DNA of 50,880 nucleotides from a virus. Position 1 is the stretch's first letter. Each line of letters starts with the position of its first letter. The stretch lies in the UHGV virus genome UHGV-0174141. One strand, 5' to 3'. The position numbers were made by a program. Below are positions 33,001 through 36,000 of the stretch, piece after piece.

Positions 33001-36000
33001 AGGGCCGCTTAGCGGCCCTCTCTTTCTGAGGAGATTGTGATGGCCAGAAAAAATGTGGATGAACCGTCTGTATTCGACGGTAAAAATGCGGCGCCAGAAC
33101 CCACTGAGGCCGGGACTATTCAGGTTCAGCCTGTCCGGCGTTTTATGGATGGCGATATTTTCAGGACGCCCGCCGATGATCCTTTTCATGTCTCTCGCTT
33201 ACGTGCTGCCGAGCTCAAAGGTAACGGGCTGGTGACGATAGTTGGTGAAGTCCCTGATAACAAAATGAACCGCGCCCCCGAAACCAAAGGGTAATGGTTA
33301 TGACGGTAATCAACACTGAAACAGCCATGGAACATCTCAGGCTGGATGATGAAATCGATAAAACGATGGTGGAGGGGTATCTTGCCGCTGCGGAGGATGC
33401 TGCTATGCAGTTTCTTAACCGACGCTTTTTTGCTGACCAGGCTGCTCTGGATAGTGCTGTTGAGAATGAAAGTGCCGGCGATCGTCCGCTTATCATCACG
33501 CCCTCCATTCAGAGCGCGGTTCTTCTTATAGTGGGCTGGTTGTATGAAAACCGCGGGGATGATCTGAGTCCTGATATCCCAGGACCCGCACGCTGGTTGC
33601 TGAATCCCTGGCGAATTCAAATGGGTGTTTAGCCGGAGGGGATGATGAAAATTGGACCAATGCGGCATCGGATCACCATCCGAAATTTTATTGCTACGCG
33701 AACACCGAGTGGTCAGCCAACAGAAGAGTGGTCTGACGGCGCCACTATCTGGGCAGAGGTAAAGGGAATCAGTGGACGAGAGAACCTGACAGCAGGAGCA
33801 GAAAGGGCAGATGCTACAGTTCGTGTCTGGGTTCGATATCGCAAAGATATTTCGGCATCATCGCGACTTCTTGTCCTGAACGGCCCCTACAAAGGAGTGA
33901 CATTGAATGTCACCGGGCCTCCGGTGCCAGATAGCAAAGGTACCCGGCTGGAAATTCTCTGCAAACAGGGGACCGAAAAATGATTGATGTGAATCTGGAT
34001 TTTTCCGGCTTAGAGGATATCGCCCGAGACCTGCAAATCCTCAGCAAAGCCGAAAACAACAAAGTCCTCCGGGACTCTACTCGGGCCGGGGCTGAAGTCC
34101 TCCGGCAGGAAGTGATTGATCGGGCTCCTGAGCAAAGCGGAAAACTGAAGAAAAACGTTGTTGTCGTCACCCAGAAAAGCCGTCGCCGTGGGGAAATCGC
34201 ATCGGGGGTCCATATTCGTGGCGTTAACCCGCGAACGGGGAACAGCGACAACACCATGAAGGCCAGCAACAAGCGGAATGCTTTCTACTGGCGCTTCGTG
34301 GAGCTGGGAACATCTACGGCCCCGGCACATCCTTTTGTTCGCCCCGCTTTTGATACCCGACAGGAAGAGGCCGCAAAGGTAGCGATGGAGAGAATGAACA
34401 AGGCGATCGATGAGGTGCTGGCGAAATGACAGAGGATGATATCTATACCCTGCTGTCGCCGCTGGCAGATGGGCGGGTTTATCCGTATGTGGTGCCGCTT
34501 GGCAGCGACGATTTACCCGCAGTGGCCGCTCCTTACATTATTTTCTCGATACCGACTGATGTTGCCGGGGATGTTTTCTGTGGGCAGGCCGAATCGACGC
34601 TGCACATTCAGGTAGACGTGTGGGCAGAAACTAACGATGAGGCCAGGGCGTTGCGGCTTGAGGCCCTTTCCCGGCTGGAAGTGCTTTCACCTACCGAAGT
34701 AACCAAAATCCCCGGCTACGACACTACAACCCACTTGCATCGGGCAACGCTCGAAATAACGGTCATTGCCTGACTGGAACCAATCCAATCTGACCGCCGC
34801 TGGCGGTTTTTTCATTTATGGAGGCTGCAATGTCAGCACTATTTGAACGCGCCCAAAAAACGGTAGTAATGATTACATCAGTGCCGGTCACTGCGGAAGA
34901 ACTGGCATCAGCGACCTGGCTCAACCTGAGTTGTACCATTAAACAGGCCAGCTTTACCGCTGGTCAGAAAAACGATATTGACGTGACAACGCTCTGCTCC
35001 GAAGAAACGGAGAATATCAACGGACTCCCGGCACCGTCTGAGATGTCTCTCTCCGGTAACTTCTACCGCAACCCGGCGCAGGATGCACTTCGTGCAGCAT
35101 ACGATAACGACGGCGTTTATGGATTTAAGGTTATTTTCCCGTCCGGAAATGGGTTCCTGATGCGTGCTGAGGTGCGTCAGCACACCTGGGATTCACAGGC
35201 AAATAGCGTTGTTGCTGCGACTTTCTCCCTTCGTCTGAAGGGTAAGCTGAGCAATATCGATGCCTCCGGCATCCTTGCATTTAGTAGCGATCTGCCAGTC
35301 ACTGAATCAGTTACTGCCGGGAGTCCACTTTCCTTAAGTGTGGTGGCTACAGGTGGTAAAGCTCCATATACCTACGTATGGAAAAAAGGTTCGTCAACCA
35401 TCAGCGGGCAGACCAGCGCAACGTTTAATAAGGCCAGTGCAGTTTCTGGTGATGCCGGTGTTTACTCCTGTGTAGTCACTGACTCTGCCACTCCGGCGAA
35501 CGTTATCACCTCATCTGACTGCACCATCACCATCAGTTAATGGAGCGCCGGGAAACCGGCGATAAACTTAATGTCAAAACAGAATCTTAAAGCGCTGGCG
35601 CTGGCCCCGATGGCGGGTTTTCGTAAAAAAGAAGTCACCGTTCCGGAATGGGAAAACGCCAAAGTTATCATTCGTGAACCATCGGCTGAGGCCTGGATTC
35701 GCTGGCAGGGGATTGCCAGCCCGGAACAACCAAAACTACCGGAAGGGCAGGAAGCGCCAGAGGTGCCAGAACTGACCCCTTCAGAACGCGCGTTCCGCAC
35801 GATGCGGGCAGATGTCACACTCTTCATTGATATTCTGCTGGATACCGACCTGCAGTACGTTTTCACCGTCGATGATACCGAACAGGTTGAAGCAATTTAT
35901 GGCCCTGTCCATTCCCGGTTGCTGAAACAGGCGCTTGATCTCATTCGTGATGCGGATGATGCCAAAGCAAAGTAAAAATGCCTGGCATGCAGTTCCTGAT

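Follow-up and report, generated by a model that had tools for sequence, protein, structure and literature searches.

A probable -1 frameshift at a minimal GCA_AAG site beside the G stop codon of a phage G/GT-type tail chaperone locus

In the virus genome UHGV-0174141, a T-like ORF lies directly behind a G-like tail assembly chaperone ORF and in another frame. This raises the question whether T is translated as a -1 extension of G, as in the lambda G/GT arrangement, or separately from its own ATG. The whole stretch of 50,880 nucleotides that was analysed is called the window here, and its source is presumably a Klebsiella prophage. The two ORFs are as follows.

35571..35975, + strand: G-like ORF of a tail assembly chaperone (134 aa) in the zero frame, ending with TAA at 35973-35975
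35978..36283, + strand: T-like ORF, 101 aa from ATG 35978, -1 frame

The G-like ORF matches PF06222 Phage_TAC_1 (E=5e-44) and phrog_344 'tail assembly chaperone'. It is 56% identical to HK97 gp13, and Klebsiella genomes contain the identical sequence under the annotation 'phage tail assembly chaperone'. The T-like ORF matches PF06223 Phage_tail_T (E=6e-18), the Pfam family of lambda T. A single profile of 224 positions, phrog_14766, spans both, with G on positions 3-122 and T on positions 127-223. G and T are placed between the genes of the major tail protein (34818-35540) and the tape-measure protein (38227-41808). About 1.9 kb of additional genes separates T from the tape-measure gene. HK97 also has a moron at this place, and it shares with the window the homologous proteins, Pfam families, gene order, -1 frame of T and AAG column. 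Lambda G is presumably in a Pfam chaperone family different from Phage_TAC_1.

The T start at 35978 has a frame offset of -1 (equivalent to +2) from the G start at 35571. As the initial annotation had described, the T frame crosses the G stop; a TGA at 35957-35959 leaves it open only from 35960, with an observed overlap of 16 nt (35960-35975). The T frame of most close relatives is instead interrupted by a TAA, which leaves an overlap of only 10 nt. The junction at window 35961-35980 reads gccaaagcaaagtaaaaatg, in which the G-frame codons GCC AAA GCA AAG TAA are followed by AA ATG. By chance, a -1 frame is expected in 1 of 3 cases and five stop-free codons about 0.8 of the time. Taken alone, the ORF geometry is no more than chance, and its significance comes from homology.

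To place the junction among its homologs, 201 unique G-T sequences out of 229 related loci were compared. All 201 place T in the -1 frame, keep that frame open through the G stop and carry an in-frame NNA_AAG inside the overlap, in the same column. The NNA codon is AAA in 51, GGA in 30, GAA in 36 and GCA in 85 (these counts sum to 202, one above the 201 total). The same column holds the curated slip point of HK97, GAA_AAG. The HK97 record (NC_002167, gp13 7472-7858 and gp14 7472-8145) says that gp14 is 'translated due to a -1 frameshift'. A HK97 fusion built by a slip at GAA_AAG matched NP_037707.1 exactly, and the version built at CCG was absent from the protein collection. In the window, the corresponding site and the adjacent stop are the following.

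35967..35972, + strand: proposed -1 shift site GCA_AAG, with the A_AAG tetramer at 35969-35972
35973..35975, + strand: G stop codon TAA, directly 3' of the shift codon in the context TAA-A, a possible 'shifty stop'

No X_XXY_YYZ heptamer is present in the 16-nt overlap (T GCC AAA GCA AAG TAA) or in the 10-nt overlap of the relatives. The first reading had likewise found no classic slippery heptamer and left the shift site uncertain, which can be explained if the slip uses the minimal GCA_AAG beside the G stop. GCA_AAG is the sole Z_ZZN motif within the 10-nt overlap common to the whole lineage, and the -1 codon AAA at 35969-35971 is available for re-pairing of tRNA-Lys from the in-frame AAG. 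These sequence features allow the shift to be placed, most likely at the hexanucleotide GCA_AAG at 35967-35972. Other routes across the junction were rejected. C_CAA_AGC and GCC_AAA as upstream slip sites are ruled out by a T-frame TAA (GCT AAA) before AGC in most relatives. The longest A runs, A3 and A5, are too short for transcriptional slippage. Readthrough of the in-frame TAA would meet another zero-frame stop after 6 codons.

The resulting product would be the following.

35571..36283, + strand: predicted GT fusion, 35571-35972 joined to 35972-36283 with base 35972 read twice, 237 aa

Most ribosomes on G would end at TAA 35973 and yield the 134-aa chaperone. A small fraction would slip back one base, with tRNA-Lys moving from AAG (35970-35972) to AAA (35969-35971). 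Since the GCA codon would be unable to re-pair in the -1 frame, this would be single-tRNA slippage on an NNA_AAG hexamer. After the slip, the -1 frame would continue as GTA (35972-35974), AAA, ATG and onwards into the 237-aa G-T fusion. The adjacent stop codon would probably aid the slip, and a downstream hairpin at 35980-36034 possibly does so. As in lambda gpGT, the G half of the fusion would be expected to bind the tape-measure protein and the T half to bring in the major tail protein. We infer the slip itself, its frequency and the contributions of stop codon and hairpin. That a G-T chaperone fusion of 237 aa is made by a tRNA-Lys slip from AAG to AAA at GCA_AAG is considered probable from the sequence evidence.

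The predicted junction runs ...DADDAKAK, then VKMPGMQFLM..., with the junction peptide DAKAKVKMPGMQF. The hypothetical fusion aligned without gaps across the junction to the fusions of HK97, Stx-phage, mEp390, Pm34 and 606R7, at 51-62% identity, and all six aligned sequences have Val where G and T join. The proposal of a lambda-like G/GT -1 frameshift, made at the outset, is supported by the Pfam families, by HK97 homology and annotation and by the gapless fusion alignment. The invariant Val also bears on a +5 'stop-hop', in which peptidyl-tRNA-Lys would leave AAG 35970-35972 and land on AAA 35975-35977 to give ...AKAK followed directly by MPGMQ..., without Val-Lys. Matched Lys codons do stand on either side of the stop (AAG UAA AAA). 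However, the other GCA_AAG lineages read AAG TAA AAG AGC, AAG TAA AGG AGC and AAG TAG CCG and have no AAA landing codon at +5 in the T frame. We know of no natural case of such a hop, and it is regarded as extremely improbable here.

The window differs from HK97 in the details of the slip. HK97 slips on G_GAA_AAG and has 5 further G codons before the stop and a 52-nt overlap, whereas the window has A_GCA_AAG right before the stop, a 16-nt overlap and a T ATG two codons past the fusion point. Lambda slips on the canonical tandem-slippage heptamer G_GGA_AAG, and its T lacks a separate start codon. The lambda G/GT system is reportedly the subject of work by Levin, Hendrix and Casjens in 1993 and by Xu, Hendrix and Duda in 2004, 2013 and 2014. 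Like lambda, the window would combine an abundant short chaperone with a rare -1 extension carrying the T domain (PMC5009743). A canonical heptamer is typical of the G/GT type and not strictly defining, since HK97 itself uses G_GAA_AAG. The locus is an ordinary member of the known G/GT kind and leaves the known picture of frameshifting unchanged.

GCA is decoded by a tRNA-Ala carrying cmo5U34. IS3-based A_AAG constructs are said to have been studied by Licznar et al. in 2003. At NNA_AAG sites, the rule is a 5' NNA codon read by a tRNA with high wobble propensity (PMC5009743). IS1222 (G_CGA_AAG) uses such a site and another occurs in B. subtilis cdd (A_CGA_AAG), both with the same re-pairing of a single tRNA-Lys from AAG to AAA and a 5' codon unable to re-pair (PMC5009743); work on these shift sites is also credited to Sharma et al. 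2014. The known cases are IS transposases, an incidental cellular event and synthetic constructs, whereas the window has a phage tail chaperone, a position directly before the stop and GCA as the 5' codon. Among tetramers in E. coli, A_AAG shifts most readily and reached 5.6% with a pseudoknot, while tetramer motifs without a stimulator gave 0.147% against a background of 0.112% (PMC4066793). The expected efficiency at NNA_AAG and A_AAG sites is low and stimulator-dependent (PMC5009743, PMC4066793). As tetramers are barely above background unaided, useful efficiency depends on stimulators, which here are only candidates. The E. coli dnaX site A_AAA_AAG, with an upstream SD and a downstream stem-loop, has the A-site codon and tRNA-Lys of the window; sister clades use exactly A_AAA_AAG, and the predicted stem-loop of the window is at similar spacing. 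Unlike dnaX, the window would have no tandem slippage and, on inspection, no convincing upstream SD-like element, and it would presumably need an efficiency of no more than a few percent, against ~50% in dnaX.

Among the candidate stimulators, the stop codon follows AAG immediately in 135 of the 201 unique relatives. A stimulatory role for it is suggested by work of Weiss et al. in 1987 that PMC5009743 cites. The second candidate is a hairpin.

35980..36034, + strand: predicted RNA hairpin, outer stem 35980-35986 paired with 36028-36034, candidate frameshift stimulator

The hairpin begins 7 nt after AAG, which is the classical spacing. Its MFE is -29.5 kcal/mol (z=-2.77, and z=-2.70 in a second run), and none of 200 shuffled sequences folded as well. 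Support for it across the lineage is weak: with the commonest variant, C at 36022, z was -0.58 and the outer-stem probability 0.38. Downstream structure was significant in the window and in L060, and folding revealed no significant downstream structure in L034 and L020. The stems do not vary, and they offer no covariation. An H-type pseudoknot formed from stems 35980-86/36028-34 and 35989-95/36036-42 was rejected on loop geometry, as only 1 nt would remain to connect the stems. An Rfam scan of 35700-36400 gave no frameshift element and only sub-threshold matches to terminator-like sRNAs after T. Inspection for an upstream SD-like stimulator revealed none consistent across the family and none clear in the window.

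Constraint at the junction was observed at the level of synonymous sites in the Klebsiella lineage.

35946..36052, + strand: island of suppressed synonymous variation spanning the G/T junction, Klebsiella lineage

Among 70 unique colinear Klebsiella-lineage sequences, 10 of 33 island codons have a variable third position, compared with 151 of 202 codons outside it (Fisher p=1.2e-6). Diversity at third positions is 0.035 in the island against 0.146 and 0.206, and the 200 most divergent pairs show 96.7% identity in the island against 85% and 84% in the flanks. A family-wide synonymous-constraint scan gave a modest rise at the junction (0.60-0.63 vs 0.48 overall), and the strong constraint is limited to the Klebsiella lineage. 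The island could instead come from recombination or homogenisation and not from RNA function. In 76 unique Klebsiella-lineage sequences, the AAG of the shift site is invariant, as is the third base of GCA; Lys codons elsewhere in this lineage are 92% AAA and 8% AAG.

These invariant bases also bear on the view that the only T product is a free protein of 101 aa, made by termination at TAA 35973 and reinitiation 2 nt downstream at ATG 35978 through translational coupling. The ancestral frameshift would then have been lost in the lineage, with GCA_AAG a decayed heptamer, and the synonymous sites 35969 and 35972 should be free to change, yet neither of them varies. The view agrees with the replacement of the A_AAA_AAG of the sister clades by GCA_AAG and with the rise of an ATG two codons past the ancestral fusion point. 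TAA-AA-ATG is invariant in ~100 members of the Klebsiella lineage, and its spacing fits reinitiation. Every member has an ATG 2 nt past the G stop, which gives a second potential route to T and counts against the slip as the sole one. RefSeq and GenBank annotate G and T as two separate genes, no fused G-T protein is annotated for the lineage in the databases searched, and the exact predicted fusion of the window is absent from a collection of 15 billion proteins. The ATG itself, however, has no Shine-Dalgarno sequence; its anti-SD energy of -0.4 kcal/mol is the weakest of ~20 late-operon starts, and its G opens the predicted stable stem and would be buried there. Its presence is not diagnostic, since an ATG also occurs in the junction stretch of 26 of the 125 non-Klebsiella sequences that have canonical motifs. 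Three other lineages have the identical GCA_AAG-plus-stop junction and lack that ATG, and the T domain of lambda acts as part of a fusion (PMC5009743). Translation of T from its own ATG 35978 had been set against a frameshift in the initial annotation; the ATG is indeed present, and the scenario is weakened by the missing Shine-Dalgarno sequence and the three lineages lacking the ATG. T as a free protein only is thought unlikely.

Both routes could also operate at once, with low-level GT by slippage and free T by reinitiation. The features for each coexist and are invariant in the lineage, and nothing in the sequence makes them exclusive. This reading is less parsimonious and again depends on an ATG without an SD, and it is judged very unlikely; to our knowledge, no G/GT system requires a free T. 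It is quite unlikely that the Klebsiella lineage is a natural intermediate which draws its T domain from a rare A_AAG 'shifty-stop' GT fusion together with an SD-less free T. If such a dual supply is true, the T domain can act untethered from G, contradicting the lambda tethering model.

Annotation pipelines and heptamer-based predictors split the locus into two genes. As no GT fusion is listed for the lineage and the predicted sequence is absent from the protein collection, hundreds of annotated Klebsiella prophages probably lack a genuine product of tail assembly under the preferred reading of a slip at GCA_AAG. Of the single-ORF G+T proteins P0066 and P0067, one is a variant with a 4-codon deletion and the other a read of Stx-type relatives with two indels; they have no bearing on the Klebsiella lineage.

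GCA_AAG followed by a stop was found in four lineages. At least four independent origins are suggested by a neighbour-joining tree without support values and by nearest-neighbour identities. Every GCA lineage is nearer to a relative with a different motif than to any other GCA lineage; L133, for example, shares 83% identity with the HK97 group. The Serratia-type sister clades L018 and L019 of the Klebsiella lineage have the canonical A_AAA_AAG. The three GCA lineages outside Klebsiella lack an ATG in the T frame at the place of the window's (VKEPLTFFLM, VAAPGVRFLM, VKSPGM), and their T should therefore depend on the shift. Throughout the HK97-type chaperone family, A_AAG is fixed and the preceding codon cycles among AAA, GGA, GAA and GCA. 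The repeated GCA_AAG plus stop offers a natural series on the slipperiness needed by G/GT systems, and the same series bears on whether an adjacent stop can replace tandem slippage. Within the L034 clade, GCA, GAA and AAA interconvert at the codon before AAG.

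The late operon of the window is HK97-like, in the order capsid genes, head-tail connector, HK97-gp10-like protein, tail terminator, major tail protein, G and T, the last two being the tail-assembly chaperone ORFs.

34818-35540, Ig-domain major tail protein, directly before G
35571-35975, G, 134 aa, Pfam Phage_TAC_1 (E=5e-44)
35978-36283, T from its ATG, 101 aa, Pfam Phage_tail_T (E=6e-18)
38227-41808, tape-measure protein, 1193 aa, further downstream of G and T

T lies in frame -1 with respect to G and stays open across the G stop, as described accurately in the initial annotation. 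The T frame is closed by a TGA at 35957-59 and is open only from 35960, giving an overlap of 16 nt. The G-frame codons at the junction are GCC AAA GCA AAG TAA, followed by AA ATG, and the earlier remark that no canonical slippery heptamer could be identified holds, no X_XXY_YYZ being found in the G/T junction of the window. This frame geometry by itself is not beyond chance. A third-frame ORF of 48 aa (35935-36081, +1 relative to G) also spans the junction; it is open in the HK97, Stx-phage and mEp390 relatives and closed in Pm34, and is probably a compositional effect of GC-rich codons, not a gene.

The region is about 90% identical to that of many Klebsiella prophages and phages and of 12 E. 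coli chromosomes. HK97 and its relatives match G at 56% identity (tblastn, G as query), and the HK97 record gives gp14 as a joined CDS, 'translated due to a -1 frameshift'. Hypothetical fusions were made at the final in-frame AAG by reading its last base twice. The HK97 fusion built in this way exactly matches NP_037707.1/AAF31104.1, while that built at the other conceivable site, C_CCG, was absent from the protein collection searched; the curated slip point of HK97 is therefore GAA_AAG, which occupies the same alignment column as GCA_AAG of the window. The window fusion product of 237 aa aligned without gaps over the junction with the fusions of HK97, an Stx phage, mEp390, Pm34 and 606R7 (for example, DADDAKAK/VKMPGMQFLM against NADEAREK/VSTPGVKFLM). 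The window G/T pair is homologous to HK97 gp13/gp14 and probably uses an HK97-type programmed -1 frameshift on GCA_AAG (35967-35972), directly 5' of the G stop. With this homology and the shared slip column, the lambda-like G/GT frameshift proposed in the initial annotation is the favoured reading, with a good probability of being right.

GCA_AAG is non-canonical yet belongs to the already known NNA_AAG class of sites, in which tRNA-Lys re-pairs from AAG to AAA in the -1 frame. GCA is decoded by cmo5U34 tRNA-Ala. Sites of this class are used by IS1222 (G_CGA_AAG) and present in B. subtilis cdd (A_CGA_AAG), and their efficiency is set by the wobble propensity of the NNA-reading tRNA (PMC5009743). 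In E. coli no tetramer shifts more readily than A_AAG, which reaches 5.6% with the IS3 pseudoknot but stays near background without a stimulator (0.147% vs 0.112%; PMC4066793). For lambda, the functions of gpG and gpGT, present at a 30:1 ratio, have been reviewed (PMC5009743), and a passage of the same paper cites Weiss et al. 1987 as the origin of 'shifty stops' and stop-hops. The GCA_AAG hexamer is not obviously included in the PRFect motif list (PMC10885494).

The family survey covered 229 related loci (GTDB genomes, IMG/VR, GenBank phages) giving 201 unique G-T DNA sequences. All 201 have T in the -1 frame and an in-frame NNA_AAG within the overlap. NNA is AAA (A_AAA_AAG) in 51 sequences, GGA (G_GGA_AAG) in 30, GAA in 36 and GCA in 85 (75 of the Klebsiella lineage, i.e. 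the window and its close relatives, and 10 others), the four counts totalling 202, one above the number of unique sequences. The slip codon is AAG throughout, and lysine elsewhere in the surveyed genes is mostly AAA (749 AAA vs 68 AAG in the Klebsiella lineage). A stop codon directly follows AAG in 135 of the 201 sequences. GCA_AAG followed by a stop was also found in three groups outside the Klebsiella lineage.

Pantoea-type clade (L034, L121-L127, L131), GCA_AAG and stop, T frame ...GKVKEPLTFFLM, no ATG ahead of the conserved FLM
L020/L151/L152, GCA_AAG and stop, T frame VKSPGMFFLM
L133, GCA_AAG and stop, VAAPGVRFLM, 83% identical to the HK97 group

Since T in these three lineages lacks a start codon where the window has its ATG, GCA_AAG with its stop would have to be a working shift site there. 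Origins were judged from nearest relatives and a neighbour-joining tree. The nearest relative of every GCA lineage carries another motif and is closer than any other GCA lineage, which suggests four or more independent origins. GCA, GAA and AAA interconvert within the L034 clade. One Klebsiella-lineage locus, L060 (2897-2905, IMGVR_UViG_2687453735_000001), has GAA_AAG_TAA in place of GCA_AAG_TAA; GAA is the HK97-type 5' codon, consistent with exchange of GAA and GCA by one substitution.

The main rival explanation is that T is produced solely from its own ATG at 35978, 2 nt past the G stop, by reinitiation. The inspected annotated records list a gene for each ORF, 'phage tail assembly chaperone' and 'phage tail assembly protein T', and no annotation of a fused G-T protein of the Klebsiella lineage was found in the databases searched. 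This ATG has the weakest anti-SD complementarity (-0.4 kcal/mol) among about 20 late-operon starts, and its G opens the stem predicted at 35980-36034. A missing Shine-Dalgarno is an unreliable criterion in this operon because the start of gene G at 35571 has almost no complementarity within usable distance (-3.3 kcal/mol, 16 nt upstream), and little is seen at the portal start at 29762 (-2.2 kcal/mol). An ATG in the junction stretch is not unusual; of 125 non-Klebsiella sequences carrying canonical motifs, 26 have one there, within PGM. The family has various residues (S, E, Q, R, L, T) at the Met position of the window. We regard reinitiation alone as unlikely, and the simultaneous use of slippage and the T ATG as less likely still. 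In P0066 (JGI metagenome contig, 222 aa), from a relative of Stx-phage type, four codons (VARP) are lost at the junction (...ESARKK/EIRFLM...), which puts G and T in a single in-frame ORF; this is either a constitutive GT fusion that occurs naturally or an error of assembly.

Constraint around the favoured GCA_AAG site was analyzed in 70 unique colinear Klebsiella-lineage sequences, whose pairwise identities fall as low as 84%. In 35946-36052, 10 of 33 codons vary at the third position, compared with 151 of 202 in the remaining sequence (Fisher p=1.2e-6), and third-position diversity is 0.035, lower than in G (0.146) and in the remainder of T (0.206). Among the 200 most divergent pairs, identity is 96.7% in this island and 85% and 84% in its flanks. 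Positions 35967-35994 are invariant among the 70 sequences, a set leaving out the GAA_AAG variant L060. Recombinational homogenisation is an alternative explanation of the island. A hairpin is predicted in the window at 35980-36034 (-29.5 kcal/mol, z about -2.7 to -2.8), starting 7 nt past AAG, the classical stimulator spacing. It is only a candidate stimulator, since the commonest lineage variant (C at 36022) folds weakly (z=-0.6, outer-stem probability only 0.38), the stems are invariant, so that covariation gives no information, and no significant downstream structure was found in the other GCA lineages.

A mini-hairpin, GCGCUCC-N4-GGGGCGC, is common to most of the family within the T codons for A-L-R-(M/L)-G-R, also in L004, L005, L007, L019, L020, L034 and others. 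The same unusual codons (CTC, GGG) are kept even where clades share about 50% identity, and L034 and L006 carry G-U-preserving changes. The Klebsiella-lineage version of the mini-hairpin is broken by a mismatch at its centre (GGGACGC or GGGCCGC, position 36022). In the window it lies at 36008-36025, about 42 nt past the slip site, too far 3' for a classical stimulator.

Between T and the remaining tail operon the window carries a 1284-bp insertion (36284-37567) with a copy of the T 3' end on either side, the two being 86% identical (direct repeat 36234-36276 and 37518-37560). The second copy is an ORF tail, ...SDPFAALEAALFAASA, at 37442-37567. Two ORFs lie inside the insertion.

36470-37225, KilA-N + P63C protein
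37228-37485, phrog_875 ORF, 85 aa

The insertion is absent from relatives such as E. coli W409, where T is followed by a hypothetical ORF and the tape-measure gene, and looks like a moron gained by recombination at the T 3' end. An intrinsic-terminator-like hairpin at 36299-36320 (8 bp, 6 G-C, then TTTTTT) is situated 16 nt past the T stop, within the late operon and ahead of both the moron and the tape-measure gene; the HK97 record likewise annotates putative terminators around its moron, in the same place.
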